Assembly: GCA_035501935.1 (NCBI GenBank) | Contig: DATJVC010000025.1 | Span: 8,905 to 72,904 of the forward strand | Direction: 5' to 3' | Length of the DNA stretch: 64,000 nucleotides | Source of the DNA: Gammaproteobacteria bacterium | GTDB taxonomy: Bacteria > Pseudomonadota > Gammaproteobacteria > JAJPIJ01 | Shown here: positions 4,926-55,696 of the stretch, piece by piece | How the letters are laid out: every line of letters begins with the position of its first letter | Numbering within the stretch: position 1 is the stretch's first letter | The notes under the pieces: generated by a model | The model's database searches: none | What the model was told of the DNA's origin: nothing | What the model saw: only the letters and a program-made list of their open reading frames with translations | Position numbers and translations under genes: made by a program

Positions 4926-5531
4926 TCATGCGCGGATGCCCGCGCCCCAGTCAGACTCAAAGAAAGATTCCTGCAATGGACGGCGTTCACGCCGCGCGTA
5001 TTCGCGCTCCTTCAACTCGGCGGGGATCGCCGGTTCCGCAAGCTGATAACCCACGGCGATCATCGCCATCGGCGTGTATCGATCCGGAATCTTGAATTCG
5101 CGCCGCGCCCGGCCACTGTCAAAACCACCCATCTGATGCACTGTCAGGCCCAGTGCGGTGGCCTGCAGGGCCAGGCTGATCGCCGCCGCACCGGTGTCAT
5201 ATTGCCCCCAGCGGTTCGGTGAACCGTCACGGGTCAGCACGCTGTCGGCGCATGCCAGCATCAGCACCGGTGCGTGTCGTGCCCAGGCCTTGTTGCCTTC
5301 GACAAGACAATCCCGGGCCCGCTGCCAGGCGGCGACGTCGCTCATTTTGTCCCAAACAATAAACCGCCACGGCTGATCGCCGTAGCAGGATGGCGCCCAG
5401 CGCGCCGCCTCCAGCAAGGCGGTGATTTTCACGCGTTCCACGGGCCGATACGGATCAAAGGCGCGGCCGCTCCAGCGGCTGGCAAGCAACTCATGAATGG
5501 GTTGTGCGGCATCAATGGGCTTTTTGAACAT
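4926..5531 (-). CDS. Nitroreductase family protein
   Basis: RWSGRAF...EAARWAPS...QPWRF nitroreductase motifs. Start MFKKPID with GGAG 6 nt upstream. Confidence 0.75.
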   Translation of the reverse strand: MFKKPIDAAQPIHELLASRWSGRAFDPYRPVERVKITALLEAARWAPSCYGDQPWRFIVWDKMSDVAAWQRARDCLVEGNKAWARHAPVLMLACADSVLTRDGSPNRWGQYDTGAAAISLALQATALGLTVHQMGGFDSGRARREFKIPDRYTPMAMIAVGYQLAEPAIPAELKEREYARRERRPLQESFFESDWGAGIRA

Positions 5532-5793
5532 GGGCGCTCCGTGGAAATGGTCCGGGCTAAAATAGCAGAACCCCCCGACTAAATGAAAATTCCATGGAAT
5601 CGGCCAGTAACTGCGCCGCCGATGTACGCCACACCATCGAACGTCTGTGTCATTTGGAACATGCCAGCGGGTTGTAAAAGCAAAATTCTTCCCTTTCGCA
5701 GCGCTCTTCCGCGCTCGCAACTATCCGTGGGCGGCCCTCAAATTGTTGTGGAGAAACCTGACTCGATAGTGATGCTCCATAACGAGTTCATAA

Positions 5794-5807
5794 TTAACTC
5801 ATTGATT
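5794..5807 (-). promoter_or_regulatory. IHF-like site (AATCAATGAGTTAA) between an AT-rich upstream region and the sigma-54 promoter
   Basis: Matches WATCAANNNNTTR. About 35-45 nt upstream of the -24 element. Confidence 0.35.
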
Positions 5808-5837
5808 AATGATGTATTAATTAAAACAAAATCGAGT

Positions 5838-5853
5838 TGGCACGACTGTCGCT
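5838..5853 (+). promoter_or_regulatory. Sigma-54 (-24/-12) promoter TGGCACGactgTCGCT upstream of bdhA
   Basis: GG and GC dinucleotides at the canonical 10-nt spacing. One mismatch to TGGCACG-N4-TTGCW. About 45 nt upstream of the bdhA SD. Confidence 0.5.
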
Positions 5854-5910
5854 ATGTTGACCACAAGGAAGTTCTAACTTACGAGAAATTACGAGATGGG
5901 AGACAGCATC

Positions 5911-6708
5911 ATGGCCAACGGCAATTCACTTAAAGGTAAAACCGCCGTCATCACCGGTTCGACCAGCGGTATAGGTCTCGGCATCGCCCGGGGACTGGCG
6001 GAGGCCGGCGCCAATATCGTGCTCAATGGGTTTGGCGATCAGAACGAAATCGACAAAATCCAAAAAGAGCTGCGTTCCAAAACCGGCGTGCAGGTGCTCT
6101 ACAACGCGGCGGACATGAGCAAGCCGGCACAGATTACCGCCATGATCAACGATACTCACAAGGCCTGGGGCGGCGTGGATATCGTCGTGAATAACGCCGG
6201 TATACAGAAAGTGGCGCCGATCGAGGATTTTCCAGTGGACAAATGGGACGCGATCATCGCCATCAACCTTTCGTCGGCCTTTCACACCATTCGCACCGCC
6301 CTGCCGTTCATGAAAGCGAAACGCTGGGGGCGCATCATCAATATCGCCTCGGCCCACGCGCTGGTGGCCTCACCCTTCAAATCGGCCTATGTCGCCGCCA
6401 AGCACGGTGTCATCGGGCTGACCAAGACCGTGGCACTTGAAGCCGCGGAAGCAGGCATCACCTGCAACGCCATCTGTCCGGGCTACGTCTTCACGCCACT
6501 GGTGGAAGGTCAGATCAAGGACACCGCCAAGGCACGCGGCCTGACCGAAGAACAGGTCGTACGCGATGTGCTTCTGGCGGCGCAGTCGACCAAACAATTC
6601 GTAACCGTGGAACAGCTGGCGGCGTTTGCCGTGTTTCTGTGCACGGATTCCGCGGCCCAGATTACCGGGACCGCGTTACCTGTCGACGGCGGCTGGACCG
6701 CCCATTAA
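5911..6708 (+). CDS. bdhA: 3-hydroxybutyrate dehydrogenase (SDR)
   Basis: GKTAVITGSTSGIGLGIA...NAG..YVAAKHGV..CPGYV, closely matching BdhA enzymes. GGGAGA SD 7 nt upstream of the ATG at 5911. Confidence 0.85.
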   Translation: MANGNSLKGKTAVITGSTSGIGLGIARGLAEAGANIVLNGFGDQNEIDKIQKELRSKTGVQVLYNAADMSKPAQITAMINDTHKAWGGVDIVVNNAGIQKVAPIEDFPVDKWDAIIAINLSSAFHTIRTALPFMKAKRWGRIINIASAHALVASPFKSAYVAAKHGVIGLTKTVALEAAEAGITCNAICPGYVFTPLVEGQIKDTAKARGLTEEQVVRDVLLAAQSTKQFVTVEQLAAFAVFLCTDSAAQITGTALPVDGGWTAH

Positions 6709-6724
6709 TTTCAGGAGACCCATC

Positions 6725-7537
6725 ATGAACCGCGAACAAATACTGAAAACCCCCTCCATGCCGGCGGCCAGCCCCAGTTATCCCGCCGGCCCCTACCGCT
6801 TCATCAACCGGGAATACCTGATCGTGGCTTATCAATCCGATCCAGAGGCGATCCGCGCGGCGGTGCCCGAACCCCTGGCGCCGGATGGCAGTCAGACCGT
6901 GCTTTATGAGTTCATCCGCATGCCGGACAGTTCAGGGTTCGGCGATTACACGGAATCCGGCATCGTCATCCCCTGCACCTTCAAGGGCATGCCGGTGAAC
7001 TTCACCGCGCAGATGTACCTGGACTGCGAACCGCCGATCGCAGGGGGACGCGAAATCTGGGGGTTTCCGAAAAAACACGCCCAGCCGAAACTCACGGTGG
7101 CAAGCGACACCCTGACCGGCACGCTCGAATACGCCGGCCAGATGGTGGCAATGGCCACCATGGGGTACAAGCACGAAAACCTGCTGGACGGCCATGAACA
7201 AGCCCTGGCGGAGAAGATGGGCAAAACACAAATCAATCTCAAGATTATTCCAGACGTCGACGGCAAACCCGCCATCGCGCAACTGATCGCCTACAACCTG
7301 TCTGATGTGCAAATCAAGGGCGGTTGGGGCGGTCCGGCAAGATTGCATCTGGTGCCGCACGTCAACGCTCCGGTGGCCGATCTGCCGGTCAGACGGGTGT
7401 TGGGAGGGACGCATTTGATCGCCGATCTGACCCTGCCCTATGGCCGTGTGCTGCACGATTACCTGTTGCCGGCAAAAATTCAGGGGGTGTCCGCCATGGA
7501 AGTGGGAAATACACTGGAGATTTCCCGTGCGAAATAA
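6725..7537 (+). CDS. adc: Acetoacetate decarboxylase family protein
   Basis: Aligns to clostridial ADC (PAGPYRFINREYL..., YTESG..IP, FPKK lysine pair). GGAGA SD. Confidence 0.75.
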   Translation: MNREQILKTPSMPAASPSYPAGPYRFINREYLIVAYQSDPEAIRAAVPEPLAPDGSQTVLYEFIRMPDSSGFGDYTESGIVIPCTFKGMPVNFTAQMYLDCEPPIAGGREIWGFPKKHAQPKLTVASDTLTGTLEYAGQMVAMATMGYKHENLLDGHEQALAEKMGKTQINLKIIPDVDGKPAIAQLIAYNLSDVQIKGGWGGPARLHLVPHVNAPVADLPVRRVLGGTHLIADLTLPYGRVLHDYLLPAKIQGVSAMEVGNTLEISRAK

Positions 7538-8897
7538 CGCGGTTTCGGCCTCCCGGGCACACGTCGTCATCGTCGGCGGTGGATTCGCCGGCTTGTCGGC
7601 GGCTAGGGCCATGGCCAGGGCGCCGGTGCGGATCACCCTGATCGAGCGCCACAATTATCACTTGTTTCAGCCGCTGCTCTATCAGGTAGCCACCTCTGCA
7701 TTGACGCCCGCAGAGATCGCCTCTCCGGTGCGAGGCATCCTGCGCGACCAGAAAAACGCGACGGTATACATGGATACCGTGGTGGACGTCGATAAAACAC
7801 AGCGACGCGTCCGTACGCAGAGTGGACGCGATTTCGCCTATGACTATTTGATTCTCGCCACGGGTGCGCGCCACAGCTATTTCGGCAACGATCAGTGGGC
7901 AGCTCATGCGCCGGGGCTCAAGACGCTGGATGACGCGATGGAGGTGCGGCAGCGTATTCTGATCGCCTTCGAGCGCGCCGAGATGGAGACCATCGACCGG
8001 GAGCGCAGGCGTGCACACCTTACCTTCGTAATCGTTGGTGCCGGCCCCACGGGAGTGGAGATGGCCGGTGCCATCGCCGAACTGGCTCACTCCATCGCCC
8101 ATGATTTCCGCAATGTCTCCACGCGTTGCGCCCACGTCATACTGGTGGAGGCCGGCGACCGCGTCCTGCCGCAATTCCCGCCGTCACTTTCACAACGCGC
8201 CCAACGGGATCTCAAACGCATGGATGTGGACGTGCGCGTCAAAACGCGAGTGGAACAGATCGAACCTGGTCACGTGGTGCTGAACGGGGCCCGACTGGCG
8301 GCCGAGACGGTGATCTGGGCCGCCGGCGTCCAGGCCTCACCGGCCAGCCAGTGGTTGAAGGTCACCGCCGACCGTTCCAGCCGCGTGATCGTCAACGCGG
8401 ATCTTTCCGTACCTGGTCATGAGGATATCTTCGTGATCGGTGACACCGCAGCCTGTACGCCAGCGGGCGCTGAAAGGCCGTTGCCGGGTCTTGCGCCTGT
8501 GGCCAAACAGGAGGGCGAATTCGTCGGGCGTCTGATCGCCTCGCGCGTGACCGGCAGAAAAGCGCCACGCCCTTTCCATTATCTTGATTTCGGCACCATG
8601 GCCACCATCGGCAGGAACAGCGGGATCGCCAGTTTGCGCAGCATGCGCTTCAGCGGGTTCATCGGCTGGCTGCTGTGGGGCGCGGTGCACATTTATTTCT
8701 TGATCGATTTCCGCAGCCGGGTCATGGTGGCCCTGAACTGGTTGTGGGCGTATCTCACCTATCAACGCGGCTCCCGGCTCATCACGGGCCTGAACCTGGA
8801 AACACAAGGAGAACAACATGGCAACGAATCCCAAAATGGTAAATCTGGCACTGCAGGGTGGAGGGGCGCACGGAGCCTTCGCCTGGGGAGTGCTTGA
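7527..8897 (+). CDS. ndh: Type II NADH dehydrogenase (NDH-2) / FAD-dependent pyridine nucleotide-disulfide oxidoreductase
   Basis: Two GxGxxG Rossmann motifs (VVIVGGGFAGL, FVIVGAGPTGVE) and a C-terminal amphipathic tail. GTG start overlaps the adc stop. The 3-prime end overlaps the patatin start by 80 nt. Confidence 0.75.
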   Translation: MRNNAVSASRAHVVIVGGGFAGLSAARAMARAPVRITLIERHNYHLFQPLLYQVATSALTPAEIASPVRGILRDQKNATVYMDTVVDVDKTQRRVRTQSGRDFAYDYLILATGARHSYFGNDQWAAHAPGLKTLDDAMEVRQRILIAFERAEMETIDRERRRAHLTFVIVGAGPTGVEMAGAIAELAHSIAHDFRNVSTRCAHVILVEAGDRVLPQFPPSLSQRAQRDLKRMDVDVRVKTRVEQIEPGHVVLNGARLAAETVIWAAGVQASPASQWLKVTADRSSRVIVNADLSVPGHEDIFVIGDTAACTPAGAERPLPGLAPVAKQEGEFVGRLIASRVTGRKAPRPFHYLDFGTMATIGRNSGIASLRSMRFSGFIGWLLWGAVHIYFLIDFRSRVMVALNWLWAYLTYQRGSRLITGLNLETQGEQHGNESQNGKSGTAGWRGARSLRLGSA

Positions 8898-9978
8898 TAA
8901 GCTGCTTGAGGACGGCCGCGTCGACATCGAGGGCTTGAGCGCGGCCAGCGCCGGCGCGATGAATGCCTCGGTGTACGCCTTTGGCAAGATGACCGGCGGC
9001 ACTGATGGCGCGCGCCAGGCCCTGCATGACTTCTGGTCCAGGATCAGCGCGGCGGGCAGTCTCTACAGCCCCGCCAAACGTATGCCCTGGGAATTCTGGA
9101 GCATGGGCGGAAACAGCGACAATTCGCTGGGATACTGGCTGTTCGACAGCGTCACCCGCATGTTTTCGCCGTATCAATTGAATCCATTTGACATCAATCC
9201 ACTCCGTGATGTGCTGACCGCCTCGGTAGATTTCGAAAAACTGGTGATGTGCCAATGCACCAACCTGTTCATCAGCGCGACCAACGTCCGCACCGGCAAG
9301 GTGCGTGTATTCAAGAATGAGGAAATGTCCCTGGACGTGGTGATGGCCTCCGCCTGCCTGCCCTATCTGTTCAAGGCCGTGGAGATCGGCGGCGAGCATT
9401 ATTGGGACGGCGGCTACATGGGCAACCCGGCCCTGTTCCCGCTTTTTTATCACACCGGATCCAAGGACGTGATCATCCTGCATCTCAATCCCATCCACCG
9501 CGCGGATATTCCGAAGACCTCGGTGGATATCGCCGATCGCATCAATGAGATCTCGTTCAATTCCTCATTGCTGAAGGAATTGCGCGCGGTCGCTTTTGTC
9601 AACAAGCTGATCGACGAAGACTGGGTCAAGGAGGAATACCGTGCACGACTGAAACACGTGCTGGTGCATTCCATACGGGCGGACATGGCGTTGAGTGACC
9701 TGAATGTATCCAGCAAATTCAACTGCGACTGGGATTTCCTGACCAGTCTGCGCGACAAGGGCCGCGAGACCGCGGCCGAATGGCTTGATAAAAATTATCA
9801 ACACCTCGGCAAACAATCCACTGTCGATCTCAGGGCCGAATACCTGGGCCTGCACTCCGGTGGAATCGTGGACGAGCACCATCAAAAGTCACAACCCAAT
9901 CCGACCAACGGCCGCAAGGCAAAGACACGGTCGGCGCCGGCATCGGAAATAAAACCAACGATCAGGGCCATTTCGTGA
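8818..9978 (+). CDS. Patatin-like phospholipase
   Basis: GGGAHGAFAWG oxyanion motif and GASAGA nucleophile elbow. SD AGGAGA. Confidence 0.8.
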   Translation: MATNPKMVNLALQGGGAHGAFAWGVLDKLLEDGRVDIEGLSAASAGAMNASVYAFGKMTGGTDGARQALHDFWSRISAAGSLYSPAKRMPWEFWSMGGNSDNSLGYWLFDSVTRMFSPYQLNPFDINPLRDVLTASVDFEKLVMCQCTNLFISATNVRTGKVRVFKNEEMSLDVVMASACLPYLFKAVEIGGEHYWDGGYMGNPALFPLFYHTGSKDVIILHLNPIHRADIPKTSVDIADRINEISFNSSLLKELRAVAFVNKLIDEDWVKEEYRARLKHVLVHSIRADMALSDLNVSSKFNCDWDFLTSLRDKGRETAAEWLDKNYQHLGKQSTVDLRAEYLGLHSGGIVDEHHQKSQPNPTNGRKAKTRSAPASEIKPTIRAIS

Positions 9979-10033: not shown

Positions 10034-10483
10034 ATGCGTAACCTCATTAGATCACTTCTGAGCCTCACCCAATCATTGGACTGGCTGGCGCCGCTCATGG
10101 TGCGGCTGTTTTTCGGTTATTTCTGGCTGGAAACCGGTTGGGCCAAGCTGCACAACCTTGACGCAGCCACCGCCCGCTTCGTCGACTGGGGGATTCCGTT
10201 CCCATCCTTCAACGCACCGTTCTCGGCCGGCGCGGAATTCGTCTTCGGCGGACTGCTTATGGTGGGTTTGCTCACGCGATTCTCCTCAATCGCGCTGCTC
10301 ATCAACATGGTCGTCGCCATTGCCCTGGTGGTCATCAAGAATGTCGGTAGCTTCGACGACTTCGTCGAGTTGGATGAATTCACTTACATCCTGATTTTCT
10401 TCTGGCTTGCGATGGCCGGTCCCGGCAAAGCCAGCCTCGATGCGATATTCGGCCCCCGCTTGGGACTGGTGCCAGCCCGGTAG
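10034..10483 (+). CDS. DoxX family membrane protein
   Basis: Four-TM DoxX pattern. SD GGAG. Confidence 0.75.
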   Translation: MRNLIRSLLSLTQSLDWLAPLMVRLFFGYFWLETGWAKLHNLDAATARFVDWGIPFPSFNAPFSAGAEFVFGGLLMVGLLTRFSSIALLINMVVAIALVVIKNVGSFDDFVELDEFTYILIFFWLAMAGPGKASLDAIFGPRLGLVPAR

Positions 10484-10650
10484 CACCACGGCCTGGGCAC
10501 TCTCGGCGGGCTCCTCTCCGAAATCGGAGGACTGACGGGGACGCTAGGGATTCTCAGCCTCCCGGATGAAGGCGGAGGAGTCGCCCAACCCCTTGAATGC
10601 AGCCGACCGGCCGAGAGCTGACCGACGGCTGGCTGATAACCTTAGGCCGC

Positions 10651-11097
10651 ATGGAAAAGACCTCGCGGAGTTTCGAAGTAGAAACCGCGGCATTTCCGGC
10701 CGTCGATTCCTATCTGGCCGATAGGATCTATGAATTCAATGTCGAGGCGACGCAACTCCCAGACGCCAAAGAGTTCGCCCTCGTAGTCAGAGACAAATCG
10801 CAGGAGGTCATTGCAGGAATAAGCGGGCACAGATGGGGCGGAACGTGCCACATCAATCATCTATGGGTCCATCAAGAACATAGAAAGAGTGGCCTCGGCA
10901 CCGCACTCATAAAAGAAGCGGAAGCAGAAGCGCGAAAGGCCAAATGCAGCCAGGTCCTGCTTTCGAGCCATAGCTTTCAAGCGCCCGGCTTCTATGAAAA
11001 GATGGGTTATCACTTGGTGGCGGTAATCACGGACTATCCCAACGGGCATTCGAATCAGCACTTCATGAAGATCCTTTATACCTCCGATGCCGCCTGA
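10651..11097 (+). CDS. GNAT family N-acetyltransferase. Start uncertain; the alternative is 10597.
   Basis: Acetyl-CoA binding motif VHQEHRKSGLGTALI. Confidence 0.6.
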   Translation: MEKTSRSFEVETAAFPAVDSYLADRIYEFNVEATQLPDAKEFALVVRDKSQEVIAGISGHRWGGTCHINHLWVHQEHRKSGLGTALIKEAEAEARKAKCSQVLLSSHSFQAPGFYEKMGYHLVAVITDYPNGHSNQHFMKILYTSDAA

Positions 11098-11109: not shown

Positions 11110-11946
11110 TCAGCCGATGTTTTCGAACCCCGGATAAAGGGTCATGCCGCCATCGACGTAGAGCGTGGTGCCGGTGACATAGTCGGCCTCATCGGAGACC
11201 AGCCATACCGCGGCCCTGGCGACATCAATGGTGGCGCCGAGACGGCCATAAGGAATCAGTTGCAGCAACTCCGCTTCCTTTTCCGGCGTGGGCAACGCGC
11301 CGCTGCCCGGCGTTTTGACTGCGCCCGGAGAAATGCTGTTGACACGGATCTTGTGTGGCGCCAGTTCCTGGGCCAACGTCTTCATCATCATTTGAACGCC
11401 ACCCTTGGAGGCGGCGAAGCACGCGTGGCCCGGCCATGGAATGACATCATGCACGGAGGATAAACATAGAATTTTGCCGGCCGAACGGGATAACTCCGGT
11501 ATCACGCCCTGCTTGATGTACTCGCGCGCTGCCATGCGTGCACATAGAAACTGACCGGTCAGGTTGACGCGCAGGATCTGATCCCAATCCTGCAGGGTCA
11601 TGTCCACCAGCGCGGCCTTCTTCTGCAATTCAGTGCCGTTCACGAGGATATCGATGCCGCCGTACGATTCCAGCACCTGACCGAACAGGGTCTGCAGCTG
11701 ATGCTCCTGGCTGACATCGGCCTGGACGGCGATGGCCTCGCCGCCGTCATCCTTGATTTTTTTGACCAGATATTGCGCTTCTTCCGGCCCGCGCTCGTAA
11801 TTGATCACCACTCGGGCGCCGGCAGCGGCCAGGGCTTCGGCGATGGCGGCACCGATGCCAAAGTTGGCGCCCGTCACCAAGGCTCGCTGGCCGACCAGCA
11901 CCCTAGATGGGGCCGATCCTGCCTTCATGCATACCGACAAATTCAT
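11110..11946 (-). CDS. SDR family oxidoreductase (glucose-1-dehydrogenase-like)
   Basis: TGANFGIG, NGT, S...Y..AASK motifs. SD GGGGAGA 6 nt before the ATG at 11946. Confidence 0.8.
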   Translation of the reverse strand: MNLSVCMKAGSAPSRVLVGQRALVTGANFGIGAAIAEALAAAGARVVINYERGPEEAQYLVKKIKDDGGEAIAVQADVSQEHQLQTLFGQVLESYGGIDILVNGTELQKKAALVDMTLQDWDQILRVNLTGQFLCARMAAREYIKQGVIPELSRSAGKILCLSSVHDVIPWPGHACFAASKGGVQMMMKTLAQELAPHKIRVNSISPGAVKTPGSGALPTPEKEAELLQLIPYGRLGATIDVARAAVWLVSDEADYVTGTTLYVDGGMTLYPGFENIG

Positions 11947-11947
11947 C

Positions 11948-12172
11948 TCACGTCTCCCCGGGCATGTAGCTTCCTGGGGCAACATTCAGGCGCCGGAAAG
12001 TGGTCACCCGATTGCCCTTCCACGCACTCAAAACGTCCTGTGATCGCTCTTTGGCCGTACCCTGAGGGGCCGTGGAGATGAGGAGGTTATATTTGTCGGC
12101 GCGAATGCGGCCGGTAAAAAGCGCCAGAGACTGGTTCCGTTGCATCGGAATAACTTGGTCTGCCGGTTTCAT
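11948..12172 (-). CDS. Hypothetical small protein (74 aa) with no family recognised. Its stop lies 1 nt before the SDR start.
   Basis: ATG with a weak AAGGG SD. Stop and the downstream start are back to back, so it is co-oriented and translationally coupled with the SDR gene. Confidence 0.35.
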   Translation of the reverse strand: MKPADQVIPMQRNQSLALFTGRIRADKYNLLISTAPQGTAKERSQDVLSAWKGNRVTTFRRLNVAPGSYMPGET

Positions 12173-12323
12173 GAGGTTCCCTTTCTTGGCTAGGAATAAT
12201 GGGTTGCTGCACCCGTCACCCTGATATTGCAGGCGGCATGCCAATAGGATTTACGTTAATTTAATCCATATATTTCATAAGGTTAATTGAAATCAAGCGG
12301 AAGTAAGCGGCTGTGGTCAGCCA

Positions 12324-12357
12324 CAGGATTTCGTGGAACCTCAGGATTTCGTGGAAC
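12324..12357 (+). repeat. Perfect 16-bp tandem direct repeat CAGGATTTCGTGGAAC x2 (period 18), with the adjacent palindrome CTGTGGtcagCCACAG at ~12311-12326
   Basis: Read directly from the sequence. Sits in the intergenic region between the sigma-54 activator stop and the small ORF. Confidence 0.6.
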
Positions 12358-12398: not shown

Positions 12399-14291
12399 TC
12401 AACCGCCCGCACCCGGGCGCTTTATTGCCAGCTTTTGCATGCGATACCGCAGCGTACTCGGCTCCAGCCCCAGTATGGTCGCCGCGCCACGCTTGCCTTC
12501 AATGACCCAGTCCGATTGCTGCAGGATCTGGCGTATGTGGGCCTCCTCAATCTGCTCCAGCGTGCGCATATCCGTTGCTGTGGCAACTGCCGTCGTGCCT
12601 GCCGGCGGCGTCAGGGATTCCTGTATGACCAGCCGTTCACCCGCACCCAGGATCGCCGCGCGCTCGATGATGTTCTGCAGCTCACGGATGTTGCCGGGCC
12701 AGTGATACCGCCGCAGGCGGTTCAGGGATTCCGCATCCACGCCCTTGAAGGATTTGCCAAGCTTGCGCGTGCATTTCTCCAGGAAATGACCGGCCAGCAG
12801 GGCGATGTCCTCCACCCGCTCGCGCAGCGGCGGCAGTTGCAGGGGAAATACGTTGAGACGGTAATACAGGTCGGAGCGGAAGGTGCCGGCCTCCACCATG
12901 TCGGCCAGGTTGCGGTTGGTGGCGGCGATGATGCGCACGTCCACCCGGATGGTGCGGGTGCCACCCACCCGTTCGAATTCCTGTTCCTGCAAGACGCGCA
13001 GCAGCTTGGCCTGGGCCGGCGCCGATAATTCCCCCACTTCGTCCAGAAACAGGGTGCCACCGTCGGCCACTTCAAAACGCCCCTTGCGCTGCGCCGTGGC
13101 CCCGGTAAACGCCCCCTTCTCGTGCCCGAAGAGCTCGCTTTCAATCAATTCGGAGGGCAGCGCCGCGCAGTTCATTTTGACGAAGAGTTTGTCCTTGCGG
13201 CTGCTGAGATTGTGCAGGGCATGGGCGATGAGTTCCTTGCCGGTGCCGGTCTCGCCGTTGATCAAAACGGTGGCGTCCACCTGCGCCACGTTGCGCACGG
13301 CGGCAAACAGTTCCTTCATGGCAGGCGCCTCCCCCACCATGTCCTCGAATTTGTGCTCGCCGTGGATCTCGGACTGCAAATAGATGTTCTGTTGCTGCAG
13401 GCGGCTGAGTTCGGCCTGCGTCTTCATGCGCTCGTTGACGTCGCGCAGGATGATGGTGTACAGCGGCTGGCCGCCGGCTTCGAGCGGCGAAATGCTGGCC
13501 TCGATGGGAAATTCCTCGCGATTGGCCCGCACCGCCGTGAGACCAGCCGGCGTCCACAGCTGCTGACGCACCTTTTCGTCCCGGAAATAATCCTCCAGCA
13601 AACCGCGGAAGGGCCTGGACAGAAACCGGTCAAACGGCTGCCCCAGCGCCCAGCCCGCGGAACACGTAAATATGCGCTCGGCCGCCTGATTGAACAATAC
13701 AATCCGACGGTCATGATCGATGGCAATAATGGCGTCCATCGCCGAGGCCAGGATGCGCGAAAGCTTTTCCTCGCTCTGTTTCAGGGCATCTTCGAAACGC
13801 TTGCGTTGCAATTCGGCGCATGCTCGCGCGCCGAAAATCTTGAACATGTCGATGTCGCGCGGTTCGGCCTTCATGGGCTTGTCGTCGAATATGGCGAGAT
13901 GGCCCATCACCTCCCTGGCGCTGCTGAGCAGGGGGATGGCAAGAAAGCTGCGAAGTTTCATCTCCTCCAGTGCCTGATCCCGGGGGAACAATTTGCCGAC
14001 CTGATCCGGGAAGCAGTGTATTTCGCCGTCAAGGACGGCCTCACAGGGTGTCCCGGCAAGCGCGTACTGGCCGGGATTGTGGGAATTCTCACCATCCCAC
14101 CAGGCAAGAATACGCGCAACAGTGCCGCTCTCGATGAATTCAGCCACAAAGGCGATGCGGACATTGAGCGCTTGCGATACCGAGCGCACCAATTCACGCA
14201 GGAATTCCTCGCCGGTGGTATGCGCCGTGGTCTCGGCGATCAGACGCAAAATACCCGCCGTGTCGTTGTAATGATTGACAGCCTCGTTCAC
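12399..14291 (-). CDS. Sigma-54-dependent transcriptional activator, AcoR-like (GAF-PAS-AAA+-Fis HTH)
   Basis: GAFTGA loop, Walker A GETGTGKE, ESELFGHEKGAFTGA, and a C-terminal Fis-type HTH. N-terminal GAF plus PAS domains. Confidence 0.85.
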   Translation of the reverse strand: MNEAVNHYNDTAGILRLIAETTAHTTGEEFLRELVRSVSQALNVRIAFVAEFIESGTVARILAWWDGENSHNPGQYALAGTPCEAVLDGEIHCFPDQVGKLFPRDQALEEMKLRSFLAIPLLSSAREVMGHLAIFDDKPMKAEPRDIDMFKIFGARACAELQRKRFEDALKQSEEKLSRILASAMDAIIAIDHDRRIVLFNQAAERIFTCSAGWALGQPFDRFLSRPFRGLLEDYFRDEKVRQQLWTPAGLTAVRANREEFPIEASISPLEAGGQPLYTIILRDVNERMKTQAELSRLQQQNIYLQSEIHGEHKFEDMVGEAPAMKELFAAVRNVAQVDATVLINGETGTGKELIAHALHNLSSRKDKLFVKMNCAALPSELIESELFGHEKGAFTGATAQRKGRFEVADGGTLFLDEVGELSAPAQAKLLRVLQEQEFERVGGTRTIRVDVRIIAATNRNLADMVEAGTFRSDLYYRLNVFPLQLPPLRERVEDIALLAGHFLEKCTRKLGKSFKGVDAESLNRLRRYHWPGNIRELQNIIERAAILGAGERLVIQESLTPPAGTTAVATATDMRTLEQIEEAHIRQILQQSDWVIEGKRGAATILGLEPSTLRYRMQKLAIKRPGAGG

Positions 14292-14317
14292 GCCGCCCCC
14301 CGTGATCCTTGACTGAC

Positions 14318-15148
14318 CTACTTGACGGGCAGTTTGCCGGCAAGCTGATCGATGGCGATTTCCAAATTATCCACCTTTTTCAGCAATTCGGTAATCTCCA
14401 GTTCCGCCTTGAGATTGACCTTGTAATCAAGTTCGCTGCGGATACGGTCCTTGGCGTCCGTGCGGTTCTGACTCATCATGATCACGGGCGCCTGTATCGC
14501 CGCCAGCATTGAGAGAAAAAGATTGAGCAGAATATAAGGATAAGGATCAAAGGCCTTCTGCTCCAGAAGAAATGAATTAATCAATGTCCAGACAAACAGA
14601 AATGCCGCGAACAGTCCGATAAACGTCCAACTGCCGCCGAATTGCGCCACCCTGTCGGCGATGCGATTGCCAAAAGTCTCCTTTTCCTCGATGACCTCAT
14701 TTGGATTGGGCGTGGTCCAGCGCCTGAGGAAATCGCCGGTTCGCCGGAAACGCCGCACCATCCCTTTGATGACGTCCTGGGCCATGTGCGGCCGCCGCAT
14801 CAGGAGTTCAAGGATCTGATCATGCCCCAGGGTGAATGCCTTGGTCGGCTCCGTGCTCGTAACAGTCGCTGAACGCGGGCCCCCGTCAAAAAGCGACATT
14901 TCACCGAAATAATCCCCGGGGCCCATGATGTCGATGGTGATTTTGTCCCCGTTTTCGTTGAGCAGGCTGACGGCCACCTGCCCGCTGTCTATGACATAAA
15001 GCCTGTCGCCCGTCTGACCCTCCCGGAAAATTGTCTGCCCCGCCCGGAATGATTCCTCGGTGAATATGCCGGCCAGCGCGGCCAATTCATCGTCGTCCAT
15101 GGTGGCAAATAATGGAATGCTCTTCAGTAATTCAATATTGATTGACAT
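14318..15148 (-). CDS. Cyclic-nucleotide-binding (CAP effector) domain fused to a DUF1003 membrane domain
   Basis: cNMP-binding motifs FGEMSLF...RSATV in the N-terminal half. C-terminal two-TM plus coiled-coil region typical of DUF1003. G-rich SD. Confidence 0.6.
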   Translation of the reverse strand: MSINIELLKSIPLFATMDDDELAALAGIFTEESFRAGQTIFREGQTGDRLYVIDSGQVAVSLLNENGDKITIDIMGPGDYFGEMSLFDGGPRSATVTSTEPTKAFTLGHDQILELLMRRPHMAQDVIKGMVRRFRRTGDFLRRWTTPNPNEVIEEKETFGNRIADRVAQFGGSWTFIGLFAAFLFVWTLINSFLLEQKAFDPYPYILLNLFLSMLAAIQAPVIMMSQNRTDAKDRIRSELDYKVNLKAELEITELLKKVDNLEIAIDQLAGKLPVK

Positions 15149-43325: not shown

Positions 43326-44894
43326 TTATTTTCTGAACATCGACAGCATGCGCTGGGTCACCCAAAATCCTCCGAACATGTTGACCGCCGTGAGCGCGAT
43401 CGCCAGCCCCGCCAGTACAGTGATGAAAAAGCCGGGGGAGGAGACCTGGATCAACGCACCGATGGCGATGATACTGCTGATGGCGTTGGTCACGCTCATC
43501 AGTGGCGTGTGCAAGGCGGGAGTGACGTTCCAGATCACCATATAGCCTATGAAACACGCCAGCACGAACACGGTGAAATGCGCCATGAACGCCGCCGGTG
43601 CGTAGGCGCCGATCCAGAAAAACACCAGCGCCCCCGCTCCCAGCGCGAGCGCGGTCCTGAGCGCGGCGGGCATGGCCTTCTTGCCGTGCGCCCTGGCCAT
43701 GGGACCGGCCGCCGCGGCCATATGTGGCGCCGCCGCGGTCGCCATGCCGGGCACCGGAGCCTGAGGAACTTTAAGCGCCGGCGGCGGCCACGTGATTTCG
43801 CCGGCCTGGATGGCGGTAGTGCCGCGGATCATCTCATCGTCCATGTTAACGCTGAGAATGCCATCCTTGTTCGGGCACATCTCTTCCGTCAGATGCAGCA
43901 GATTGGTGGCATACAGGCTGCTGGCCTGTTTGGCCAGCCGGCTGGGCAAATCGGTGTAGCCGATGATCGTCACGCCCCGGCGGACAACCACTTTGCCCGG
44001 CTCGGTCAGCTCACAATTGCCGCCCTGCTCCGCAGCCAGGTCCACAATGACGCTGCCGGGTTTCATGGACTCGACCATGCCGGCGGTGATCAGCTTCGGC
44101 GCCGGCTTGCCGGGGATCAGCGCCGTGGTGATGATGATGTCCACATCGATGGCCTGGCGGGCGAAGGTTTCGCGCTGGGCCTTCTGATAACCCTCGCTCA
44201 TCACCTTGGCATAACCGCCGACACCGCTGCCCTCCTCCTGATAGCTCACCTCGACAAATTCCCCGCCCATGGACTTGACCTGGTCCTTCACCTCGGGACG
44301 GGTATCGTTGGCGCGCACCATGGCGCCAAGCCCTGTGGCCGCGCCGATGGCGGCGAGGCCGGCGACACCGGCGCCGATCACGAAGACCTTGGCCGGCGGT
44401 ACCTTGCCGGCGGCGGTGATCTGACCGGTGAAAAAACGTCCAAAATGGTGCGCGGCCTCGATGACTGCGCGATACCCGGCAATATTGGCCATGGAACTCA
44501 GGGCATCCAGTTTCTGCGCACGCGAAATGCGCGGCACGCAATCCATCGCCAGCACCGTGGCCTTTTTCGCTGCCAGTTTCTTCATCAATTCGGGATTCTG
44601 GGCCGGCCAGATGAAACTCACCAGCGTGGCGCCCTCCGGCATCAACTCCACTTCCTCCAGCATCGGTGCGCGCACTTTGAAAATAATGTCGGCGGTGGAC
44701 CATAATGCCCCGGCATCGGCCACCACTTCGACGCCCACACCGCGATACACCTCGTCGGAATAGTTGGCGTGGTGGCCGGCGCCCGATTCCACAGCAACGG
44801 TGAATCCCAGCTTGATGAGCTTTTCCGCGACCTCCGGCGTCGTGGCGACGCGTTTTTCTTCCGGGTAAATCTCCTTGGGTATGCCTATTTTCAT
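43326..44894 (-). CDS. pntA: NAD(P) transhydrogenase subunit alpha (dI plus membrane dII portion)
   Basis: [18 protein letters not shown]-terminus, Ala-dehydrogenase-like NAD(H)-binding fold, C-terminal TM helices. Confidence 0.9.
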
Positions 44895-53383: not shown

Positions 53384-55696
53384 TTATTGCTTCGGTGGCG
53401 GAGGCGCCAGGACTTCACGACTGCCGTTGGATTGCAGGGCGCCGACAATGCCGGCACGCTCCATGTCCTCCACCAGCCGTGCGGCGCGGTTGTAGCCGAT
53501 CTTGAGCCGCCGTTGCACGCCGGAGACCGAGGCGCGCCGGGTTTCCGTCACAATGCGCACGGCCTGATCGTACAACTCGTCTTTTTCGCCGCCGCCGCCA
53601 CTGGCGAAACTTTCCGCGCCGTCGCCCGCCGCTTCCTCCTCTTCAAGATCGCCCCGCACAATGGCCTCGATGTATTCCGGCTTGCCGGAACGCTTGAGCC
53701 GGTTCACCACCTTGTGCACCTCCTGATCCGAGACAAAAGCGCCATGCACTCGCGTAGGCAGGCCGACGCCGGGCGGCAGATACAGCATGTCGCCGTGGCC
53801 GAGCAGATTCTCGGCGCCCATCTGATCAAGGATGGTGCGCGAATCCACCCGCGAGGACACCTGAAACGCGATGCGACTGGGAATATTTGCCTTGATCAGG
53901 CCGGTGATCACGTCTACGGAGGGACGTTGTGTTGCGAGAATGAGATGGATGCCGGCGGCGCGTGCCTTTTGCGCCAGCCGCGCGATCAGCTCTTCCACCT
54001 TTTTGCCGACGGTCATCATCATGTCGGCCAGCTCATCAACGATGACGACGATGTAAGGCAGCGCTTTCAATACCGGCGCTGCTTCTCCCTCACCAGCCAA
54101 TTCGGGCTGGAATAGCGGATCATGCAATGGCTGGCCGCTGCCGGCGGCGTCTTCAACCTTGCGGTTGTAACCGCTGATATTGCGCACACCCAGCGCCGCC
54201 ATCAGCCGGTAACGCCGTTCCATCTCATTGACGCACCAACGCAGCGCGTTAGCGGCCTCCTTCATGTCCGTCACCACCGGCGCCAACAACGGCGGGATGC
54301 CTTCGTAGACGGACAGCTCCAGCATTTTTGGATCGATCATGATGAGCCGCGTCTGCACCGCGGTGGTTTTATAAAGCAGGCTTAGCACCATGGCGTTCAA
54401 GGCGACGGATTTGCCCGATCCCGTGGTGCCGGCCACCAGCAGGTGAGGCATGCGCGCCAGATCCACCACGATGGGCTTGCCGCCGATATCCTTGCCCAAC
54501 GCCAGCGTCAGCGGTGAGGCGCTCTCCTCGTATTCTCGTGAACTCAGGATTTCGCTCAAGCTGACCAGTTCGCGTTGCGCGTTTGGGATTTCCAGACCAA
54601 TGACGGACTTTCCGGGGATCACCTCCACCACGCGCACGCTGACGGTGGAGAGCGAGCGGGCCAGATCCTTGGACAGATTACTGATGCGGCTGGCCTTCAC
54701 GCCCGGCGCGGGTTGCAATTCGAAGCGGGTGATCACCGGCCCTGGATGCACGGCGACCACCTGCGCCTCGACGCCAAAATCCTTGAGTTTCAGTTCGACC
54801 TGCCGCGACATCGCCTCCAGCGCCTCGGTGGAATATCCCCCCTTGGCGGGCGGTGGCGCGTCCAGAAGATCCAGCGACGGCAGTTCGGAGGGCGCCAGTG
54901 GCGTGTCGAATAATTTTTCCTGCTTGGCCTTGACCGCCCGCCTGCTGACCTCCGGCGTCAGCATCGGCACCTCGATCTTGGGCTTTGGGCGGCTGATAAC
55001 CCGCTCTATTTCCTCCTTGACGAAGCTTTCGCGCGCACGCCTGGCGCGCTGACCGGCGGTGTAATCTACAAGGATCTCGAACAACCGTTGCAGCGTATCC
55101 GCCAACCCCAGGGTATGGCGCCCAACGGTCTCCATCAGCCACAGCCAGGATAGGCCCGTCAACAGGGTGACGCCCGTCAGAAACAAGGCCACCATCAACA
55201 GAATGCCGCCGCGCGCGCCAAAAATCGCAATGCAGGCCTTGCCGATCACGTCGCCAAGGATGCCGCCACCCATTTGCTGGGGCGGCACGCCGCGCGTATT
55301 CGCCCAGAACAGACCGCAACCCATGATTACGGTGAGCAGGAAACCCACAGTACGGGCGGTGATATGGAAATAATCGAATTCTCGCGGCCTGACCTCCAGC
55401 CGATAGACACGCCATGCCGCTCCGGCGATCATGATCGGAAAGAGATAGGCCACATAACCAAAGAGATAAAGTATCCAGTCCGCCACGTAGGCGCCGACGA
55501 TGCCGCCTTGATTGTGGATCTGACCGGCGCTGCCGGCATGCGACCAGCCGGGATCATCCGGACTGTGCGTCAGCAGCGCCAGCAGCAGAAACAATGCCAC
55601 CGCGGCCAGCACGATCAGTCCGCCTTCGCGCAGGCGCTTTGCCAGATGCAGCGTAATTGGCGGGGAGGTCTGGTGCTTGCGTACGGCTTGCGTCAA
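53384..55696 (-). CDS. ftsK: DNA translocase FtsK
   Basis: N-terminal 4-TM domain, Pro/Ala-rich linker, RecA-like motor (GTTGSGKS), C-terminal gamma/KOPS-binding domain. Confidence 0.9.

Follow-up and report, generated by a model that had tools for sequence, protein, structure and literature searches.

A candidate enhancer-dependent sigma-54 promoter upstream of a bdhA-adc operon in an uncultured gammaproteobacterial lineage

Results

The bdhA operon and the region upstream of it

The 64-kb stretch of DNA studied here, referred to as the window, is contained in a 110-kb metagenome contig (ENA ERZ27256612 k141_3186072). It carries bdhA, the gene for 3-hydroxybutyrate dehydrogenase, followed by adc (acetoacetate decarboxylase), a gene for an NDH-2-like flavoprotein and a gene for a patatin-like hydrolase. 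Our subject is the intergenic region in front of bdhA, where a first-pass annotation had placed a sigma-54 promoter accompanied by a site for integration host factor (IHF). The features are collected in Table 1. BdhA and acetoacetate decarboxylase both score above the cut-offs of their profiles, in keeping with the designation of these genes in that annotation as a ketone-body operon.

All four genes lie on the same strand and, from bdhA via adc and the NDH-2-like gene to the patatin-like gene, they overlap or are separated by at most 16 nt. A search between bdhA and the patatin-like gene for a terminator-like site with a convincing stem found none. By this layout, bdhA and the patatin-like gene appear to share a transcription unit of the bdhA-patD type. 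An open reading frame (ORF) on the plus strand that spans the intergenic region (5583-5933) was rejected; it is not a called gene, and it is broken by frame-disrupting indels in the alignment with a related locus, L083.

Relatives of the operon were found by protein search followed by contig look-ups. They form a small clade in which a 265-aa BdhA is encoded by the first gene of a bdhA-adc-NDH2-like-patatin cluster; their loci are labelled L083, L168 and so on, with L083 to L086 entered as one locus. The gene order is the same in L083, L168, L169 and L173. Scans with BdhA of one genome per species and of the JGI metagenomes gave, among the matches listed, only proteins of 63-74% identity belonging to other clades. 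Among these matches, at least about 150 bdhA loci outside the clade showed no upstream region scoring 13 or more with the sigma-54 matrix described below, no enrichment of -24/-12 elements and no comparable activator gene within 10 kb of bdhA, and they were therefore used as a negative control and not as orthologues.

A -24/-12 element conserved ahead of bdhA

The putative promoter element, TGGCACGACTGTCGCT, is intergenic, points at bdhA and ends 57 nt ahead of the bdhA ATG (5911). As the first-pass annotation had stated, its GG (5839-5840) and GC (5851-5852) are exactly 10 nt apart, and it differs from TGGCAC-N5-TTGCW by a single mismatch (TCGC for TTGC). When the window was scanned, as had been proposed with that annotation, with a rough position weight matrix (PWM) modelled on the published sigma-54 consensus, the element scored 13.4, the third-highest value found. 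Only two of the four top matches are intergenic, this one and 12228-12243 on the minus strand. The first- and fourth-ranked matches (55584-55599, minus strand, and 43907-43922, plus strand) lie inside long ORFs (53384-55696 and 43326-44894, both minus strand) and we read them as chance occurrences. In simulated sequence of the same composition as the window, a score of 13 or more is reached in 0.9% of 300-nt stretches. Neither the -24/-12 motif nor the IHF motif exceeds chance in the window, so any significance has to come from position and conservation.

Both were found. A -24/-12 element precedes the same operon in seven lineages, namely the window, L083, L168, L169, L173, L174 and L175. The intergenic regions of the window and L083 are only 47-54% identical, as compared with 78% for the bdhA coding sequence, and their alignment contains four islands of conservation: 5550-5578, next to the start of the nitroreductase gene; 5709-5730; 5830-5855, which covers the promoter element; and the ribosome-binding site. 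No sigma-70-like promoter was detected on the bdhA strand upstream of bdhA at the threshold of the tool used. The occurrence of the element in six other lineages, its island of conservation and the lack of a sigma-70-like site support the enhancer-dependent layout that the first-pass annotation had proposed. Sigma-54 start sites usually lie about 11-12 nt downstream of the GC, which is the basis for the start site predicted in Table 1.

A minus-strand candidate facing the nitroreductase gene, AGGGAAGAATTTTGCT (5679-5694, score 10.7), was rejected and is probably not functional, because it lies about 30 nt from the distal site described below, which is too close, and because the stretch is deleted in L083.

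The IHF consensus and the AT-rich tract that had been reported just upstream of the element are both present. The sequence AATCAATGAGTTA is the sole exact match to WATCAANNNNTTR in the window, where about one is expected, and it sits between the putative activator sites and the -24 element. An AT-rich tract occupies the same place in L168 and L175 and is not seen in the GC-rich L169.

Tandem enhancer-like sites

Upstream of the AT-rich tract are two 16-bp sites in tandem, UAS-d and UAS-p, with the pattern CCRC-N8-GYGG. The core of UAS-d, CGCAACTAT, occurs at the same distance in L083, L168 and L087 and also before a short-chain dehydrogenase/reductase (SDR) gene of Methylocaldum (L171); its counterpart in L175 is CGTAACTAT. 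Site pairs precede bdhA in all six lineages compared (window, L083, L168, L169, L174 and L175), and the distance from the centre of the site to the -24 GG is 94-99 nt for the proximal site and 116-119 nt for the distal one. Such a site-to-promoter geometry is expected of a sigma-54 enhancer. We know of no described activator with a CCRC-N8-GYGG site and an A/T-rich centre.

Perfect tandem pairs of the pattern, of which at most 0.02 are expected per locus, are present in L083, L169, L171 and L172, the last of which has two, and a -24/-12 motif follows each of them at a distance of 87-119 nt. A further matrix drew on eight foreign sites only, from L168, L169, L171 and L172, and was run against the window on both strands (127,970 positions). 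It ranked UAS-p first, the two sites of the second promoter described below (12321 and 12339) within the second to fourth places and UAS-d sixth, with the limit that the foreign sites had been chosen by their likeness to the pattern, so that the matrix is not fully independent. When only the SDR-type sites of L171 and L172 were used, UAS-p came second among 63,985 positions; when only bdhA-type sites were used, an SDR-promoter site of the window was ranked third.

The candidate activator and a second promoter beside its gene

The window encodes a single enhancer-binding protein (EBP), 6.5 kb from the bdhA promoter on the opposite strand. It consists of GAF (residues 28-158), PAS (176-288), sigma-54 AAA+ (318-484; Sigma54_activat, E = 3.5e-75) and HTH_8 (577-621) domains and has a GAFTGA motif, which bears out its description in the first-pass annotation as a GAF-PAS sigma-54 activator. 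In the window the gene lies 2.4 kb past the end of the patatin gene, and in L083 1.9 kb past it, with DoxX, SDR and small-ORF genes and, in the window only, a GNAT gene in between. In L168 and L169, a GAF-PAS EBP gene directly follows the patatin gene and is convergent with the operon. An EBP with the same recognition helix is linked to the bdhA operon in all four lineages for which there is enough sequence (window, L083, L168, L169), and the helix, PSTLRYRMQKL, is identical in the seven EBPs compared, which fits a site type common to their promoters. The sole EBP-type match among the at least about 150 control loci, upstream of bdhA in L093, was set aside as an unrelated type; it is a 469-aa ORF with an AAA+ domain only, and no -24/-12 element precedes bdhA there.

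On the minus strand, the EBP gene is followed by a weak hairpin, a pair of tandem sites, an AT-rich tract, the -24/-12 element TGGCATGCCGCCTGCA, a 74-aa ORF and an SDR gene. The layout of hairpin, sites, AT-rich tract, promoter, ORF and SDR gene after the EBP gene is kept in L083. EBP homologues of 60-61% identity are followed by an orthologous SDR gene in Methylocaldum (L171) and in the metagenome contig L172 (SDR 60% identical), where the SDR gene is preceded by a perfect site pair and a -24/-12 element. An unbiased scan for perfect site pairs also brought up a third promoter of the same kind in L172, which precedes a 112-aa gene and is 1.5 kb away from the EBP gene. A nitroreductase gene beside the L172 EBP gene is not an orthologue of the one in the window, and in L170, which has the closest EBP after that of L083, no target promoter is visible on the 6-kb contig.

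The gene 14318-15148, on the same strand as the activator gene, encodes a cyclic-nucleotide-binding/DUF1003 protein. The two genes are probably co-transcribed, because they are separated by a gap of only 26 nt (14292-14317) and share the strand. Their arrangement is the same in L083, and it is not found in L171 or L172.

Table 1. Features of the bdhA locus and of the second promoter in the window, and corresponding promoters in related loci. Positions refer to the window unless a related locus is named.
Feature	Position	Strand	Sequence	Remarks
Nitroreductase-family gene	4926-5531	-		gene call and annotation
Intergenic region, 379 nt	5532-5910			between nitroreductase gene and bdhA
Distal enhancer-like site, UAS-d	5715-5730		TCGCAACTATCCGTGG	centre 117 nt upstream of the -24 GG; island of conservation with L083
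Proximal enhancer-like site, UAS-p	5736-5751		CCTCAAATTGTTGTGG	centre 96 nt upstream of the GG; begins 21 nt after UAS-d
AT-rich tract, presumed bending region	5780-5836			GC 0.23 at 5780-5839, 0.59 in the whole window
IHF consensus	5795-5807	-	AATCAATGAGTTA	perfect match to WATCAANNNNTTR; centre about 38 nt upstream of the GG
Sigma-54 -24/-12 element	5838-5853	+	TGGCACGACTGTCGCT	PWM 13.4; counterparts before the same operon in relatives
Predicted transcription start	5864-5865	+		from the usual distance to the -12 GC; 5' untranslated region of about 46 nt
Ribosome-binding site of bdhA	5898-5903	+	GGGAGA
bdhA, 3-hydroxybutyrate dehydrogenase	5911-6708	+		called gene; TIGR01963, 380 bits (cut-off 307)
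adc, acetoacetate decarboxylase	6725-7537	+		NF002614, 355 bits (cut-off 150); PF06314, E = 6e-79
NDH-2-like flavoprotein	7527-8897	+		Pyr_redox_2 and NDH2_C domains; 11-nt overlap with the end of adc
Patatin-like hydrolase (PatD-like)	8836-9978	+		PF01734, E = 8e-22; last conserved gene of the operon
DoxX	10034-10483	+
GNAT	10597-11097	+
SDR	11110-11946	-
74-aa ORF	11948-12172	-		no Pfam match
Second sigma-54 -24/-12 element	12228-12243	-	TGGCATGCCGCCTGCA	PWM 14.8, second-ranked in the window; kept in L083
Tandem enhancer-like sites	12339-12354 and 12321-12336	-	CCACGAAATCCTGAGG and CCACGAAATCCTGTGG	centres 105 and 87 nt upstream of the GG; kept in L083
Weak terminator-like hairpin	12390-12371			immediately downstream of the EBP gene
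GAF-PAS-AAA+-HTH EBP, candidate activator	12399-14291	-
L083-L086, -24/-12 element			TGGCATGACAATCGCT	BdhA 78%, fully syntenic; 43 nt before ATG
L083, site pair before bdhA			TCGCAACTATTTACGG (distal), CCGCCAATGGCCGTGG (proximal)
L168, -24/-12 element			TGGCACAGCCGTTGCT	BdhA 75%; 76 nt before ATG
L168, site pair before bdhA			CCGCAACTATTGGTGG (distal), CCTTGAATTACTGTGG (proximal)
L169, -24/-12 element			TGGCACGGGCCGTGCA	BdhA 72%; 44 nt before ATG
L169, site pair before bdhA			CCGCGAATATGCGTGG (distal), CCACCGGTTCCGGTGG (proximal)
L174, -24/-12 element			TGGCACGGGGATTGCC	BdhA 75%; 77 nt before ATG
L174, site pair before bdhA			CCGCCGCAGCCGGTGG (distal), CCGCGAAAAATCACGG (proximal)
L173, -24/-12 element			TGGCACAGCGCTTGCT	BdhA 77%; before a small secreted-protein ORF preceding bdhA
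L175, -24/-12 element			TGGCATAAGGGTTGCA	BdhA 77%; before a small secreted-protein ORF preceding bdhA
L175, site pair before bdhA			CCGTAACTATTGGTGG (distal), CCGCAATGTGTGGTGG (proximal)
L171, SDR promoter			CCACAAATACTCGCGG and CCGCAACTATTAGTGG, then TGGCGCGAGGGTTGCT	perfect site pair, then -24/-12 element
L172, SDR promoter			CCGCCGGATGTTGCGG and CCGCGGTATTCCGCGG, then TGGCACGGGCATTGCC	perfect site pair, then -24/-12 element
L172, third promoter	13340-13650 (L172)	-	TATCAAACAATTA, then TGGCACGGCCCTTGAT	site pair, perfect IHF consensus TATCAAACAATTA, then -24/-12 element; before a 112-aa gene, 1.5 kb from the EBP gene

Discussion

A model for activation of the bdhA operon

We favour the view that 5715-5853 is an enhancer-dependent sigma-54 promoter of the bdhA-adc-NDH2-like-patatin operon, with the product of 12399-14291 as its most likely activator; taken as a whole, this is a probable reading of the locus. 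Its parts deserve different degrees of confidence. The comparative data make it very likely that the bdhA promoter is functional. It is also likely, if somewhat less so, that an activator of this GAF-PAS EBP family serves it, and we put the chance that the protein encoded at 12399-14291 itself drives it at a little better than even. The first-pass annotation had called this long-range link plausible but unproven. The link gains support from the same type of tandem sites before bdhA and before the promoter next to the activator gene, and from the EBPs with the same helix that adjoin the operon in L168 and L169. The observation made there is confirmed, and the interpretation placed on it is supported by comparative evidence. 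The locus is a well-supported and rather ordinary instance of gene control of a known type.

Sequence and comparison show the motifs with their geometry and conservation, as well as the linkage of the genes. In the mechanism that we infer from them, sigma-54 RNA polymerase would bind 5838-5853 as a closed complex, while dimers of the GAF-PAS EBP would occupy 5715-5730 and 5736-5751, sites spaced by two turns of the helix. Bending of the AT-rich tract would be due either to IHF at 5795-5807 or to intrinsic curvature of the 23%-GC stretch. The bend would allow the AAA+ ATPase ring to contact and remodel sigma-54, the promoter would open, and transcription would start near 5864. The same protein would also drive the promoter at 12228-12243, and with it the 74-aa ORF and the SDR gene, acting through sites of the same kind. 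The least secure part of this proposal is the role of IHF. As to the signal sensed by the activator, our guess is a product of poly-3-hydroxybutyrate (PHB) or ketone-body metabolism, or a redox signal.

Points against the model and alternative explanations

Several observations weigh against the model. Three matches to the -24/-12 pattern with at most one mismatch were found in the window and 3.1 were expected, which is the level of chance, and no ORF with an RpoN box was found within the 64 kb. The exact IHF consensus was found in none of L083, L168 and L169, and L083 keeps only TGATT. In L087, which has the closest BdhA (89%) on a contig of 1.36 kb, the upstream block is kept and the -24/-12 element is absent; GG and GC are lost at the homologous position and nothing else scores above 2.2. 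Each of the two bdhA sites in the window has one imperfect half-site. Bare pairs of CCRC-N8-GYGG half-sites with up to two mismatches are not enriched, with six in the window and 8.2 expected, and we rejected them as a signal; only perfect pairs and a position matrix that covers the centre of the site are informative. The partial dependence of the foreign-site matrix on the pattern, mentioned above, belongs here too. Finally, when the matrix is derived solely from the two SDR-promoter sites of the window, the bdhA sites fall to ranks 42 and 736, and the window EBP is 60-67% identical to the EBPs of L170 to L172, whose genes either pair with an SDR gene or lack a neighbouring target, and only 46-50% identical to the bdhA-adjacent EBPs of L168 and L169, with sensor domains at 36-39%.

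The last two points are also what would be expected if the promoter were a real sigma-54 promoter activated by an EBP encoded outside the window, a paralogue of the L168/L169 type, with the product of 12399-14291 serving only the promoter of the 74-aa ORF and the SDR gene. EBP and SDR genes form a separate conserved module, and our view is limited to 64 kb of the genome. Since the window EBP is closer to the L170-L172 type than to that of L168 and L169, a second paralogue may act at the bdhA promoter, and the signal may differ between lineages. Against this stand the recognition helix and site class shared by all seven EBPs, with which cross-binding would be expected anyway, the linkage of operon and EBP gene that is maintained in the syntenic L083, and the lack of a second EBP in the window. 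Moreover, the L168 and L169 EBPs, at 52% identity, are no nearer to each other than to the window type, so that there is no clear orthologous group of a bdhA type. On this evidence we regard an activator from elsewhere in the genome as unlikely.

That the -24/-12 match arose by chance, with an overlooked sigma-70-type promoter within the AT-rich tract driving bdhA and the upstream block acting as the operator of an ordinary repressor or activator, agrees with the three one-mismatch matches seen where about three are expected, with L087 and with the frequency of sigma-70 -10 elements in AT-rich tracts, but it is very improbable given an element at the same position in seven lineages with diverged intergenic regions (chance rate 0.9% per region), no sigma-70-like site at the threshold of the tool, recurrence of the upstream block ahead of further -24/-12 motifs next to EBP genes and a block-to-GG distance that stays at 94-99 nt.

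Comparison with known systems

Classical IHF-assisted sigma-54 promoters include nifH, Pu and glnHp2. The bdhA promoter resembles them in its putative activator sites, which stand in tandem some 100-140 nt ahead of the start, its IHF site or AT-rich bend and its exact GG-N10-GC spacing. It differs from them in the CCRC-N8-GYGG motif of the activator sites and in the IHF consensus, which is exact in the window and not in the relatives.

The AtoSC system of Escherichia coli, in which atoDAEB is acetoacetate-induced and sigma-54 dependent (AtoC class, PMC3162934), likewise combines sigma-54 and an EBP over the catabolism of ketone bodies and short-chain acids. AtoC, however, is a response regulator with a receiver domain, whereas the window EBP has GAF and PAS domains, and the target genes differ. 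We rejected the identification of the window EBP as AtoC; it scores 353 bits with NF008469 against a cut-off of 714, the alignment begins only at residue 289, and Pfam finds no Response_reg domain.

In Pseudomonas aeruginosa, HbcR (PA2005) with RpoN controls the catabolism of (R)-3-hydroxybutyrate (Lundgren et al. 2015, Microbiology 161:2232, as described in PMC8694187, PMC8657755 and PMC10482368). HbcR is listed as having one N-terminal PAS domain, residues 17-123 (PMC8694187), and is reported to be activated by R-3-hydroxybutyrate (PMC10482368). As in the model presented here, a sigma-54 EBP controls a bdhA operon, and both proteins are orphan regulators with a cytoplasmic sensor domain and not response regulators. 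The single PAS domain of HbcR contrasts with GAF plus PAS in the window EBP, which does not have an HbcR-type architecture. The window operon includes adc, NDH-2-like and patatin-like genes and no transporter was seen in it; the activator gene, adjacent in Pseudomonas, lies 6.5 kb away. No NCBIfam model for HbcR is among the profile matches of the window proteins, and likeness to HbcR was judged from domain descriptions.

The bdhA-patD operon of Legionella pneumophila, described as needed for PHB breakdown (Aurass et al. 2009, as cited in PMC4549902), also unites bdhA and a patatin-like gene in one transcript and has a link to PHB mobilisation. In the window, adc and the NDH-2-like gene stand between the two, and sigma-54 control of the Legionella operon is not reported in the papers surveyed. 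Linkage of bdhA to a patatin-like gene is widespread, being found in many of the at least about 160 bdhA loci among the matches listed.

Possible function of the operon and its regulon

Judging from its gene content, the operon may convert PHB or 3-hydroxybutyrate by way of acetoacetate to acetone, with NADH passed to the respiratory chain, in place of CoA activation of acetoacetate. Conversion of a storage polymer to acetone and respiratory NADH under enhancer control would have some bearing on PHB physiology and on the use of PHB as a source of acetone.

A wider generalisation can be offered only tentatively, and we hold it to be somewhat less likely than not. Uncultured Gammaproteobacteria might possess a GAF-PAS sigma-54 activator family, so far undescribed, that is characterised by the PSTLRYRMQKL helix and by tandem CCRC-N8-GYGG sites at fixed distances from the -24 GG (about 96 and 117 nt) and that controls a "PHB to acetone" module made up of the patatin-like hydrolase, BdhA, acetoacetate decarboxylase and the NDH-2-like NADH oxidiser. 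In the lineage of the window, one activator would then serve both this operon and a second promoter, that of the small ORF and the SDR gene, 6.5 kb away. If so, ketone bodies would be disposed of by regulated decarboxylation of acetoacetate instead of CoA activation.

Confirmation of the model would provide a testable regulon for an uncultured lineage, comprising promoter, enhancer motif, bend, activator and two target operons. It would also extend sigma-54 control of 3-hydroxybutyrate catabolism beyond HbcR of Pseudomonas to an activator with another sensor architecture. From a methodological point of view, the locus shows that phylogenetic footprinting can validate a -24/-12 match with one mismatch that would not stand out statistically by itself.

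Minor features of the locus and its relatives

A gene for a DoxX-family membrane protein accompanies the cluster in four lineages. In the window and in L083 (14155-14607) it follows the patatin gene, and in L168 (6019-6681, minus strand) and L174 (987-1700, minus strand) it lies upstream of bdhA in divergent orientation.

No Rfam family was found in 5450-6000, and the predicted 5' untranslated region of bdhA has no unusual structure (z = -0.03). It contains a tandem 10-nt repeat, AACTTACGAG / AAATTACGAG, at 5876-5895, of which L083 has one copy. In L173 (104-424) and L175 (327-641), a small ORF of 104-106 aa with an apparent signal peptide is located between the sigma-54 promoter and bdhA; it has no counterpart in the window. 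The upstream block of L087 (1-283) reads CTCGCAACTAT...CCACAAATTGCGTGGAGAAA, and a 7-bp hairpin (CTTACGT..ACGTAAG, 152-175) takes the place of the AT-rich tract.

Five loci of another clade from soil metagenomes (L154, L133, L130, L167 and L124) share a conserved xGGCATTGGnnnTGCx at a constant spacing, 90-99 nt upstream of bdhA, and have no EBP gene within 10 kb. They may represent a separate case of sigma-54-dependent bdhA expression.

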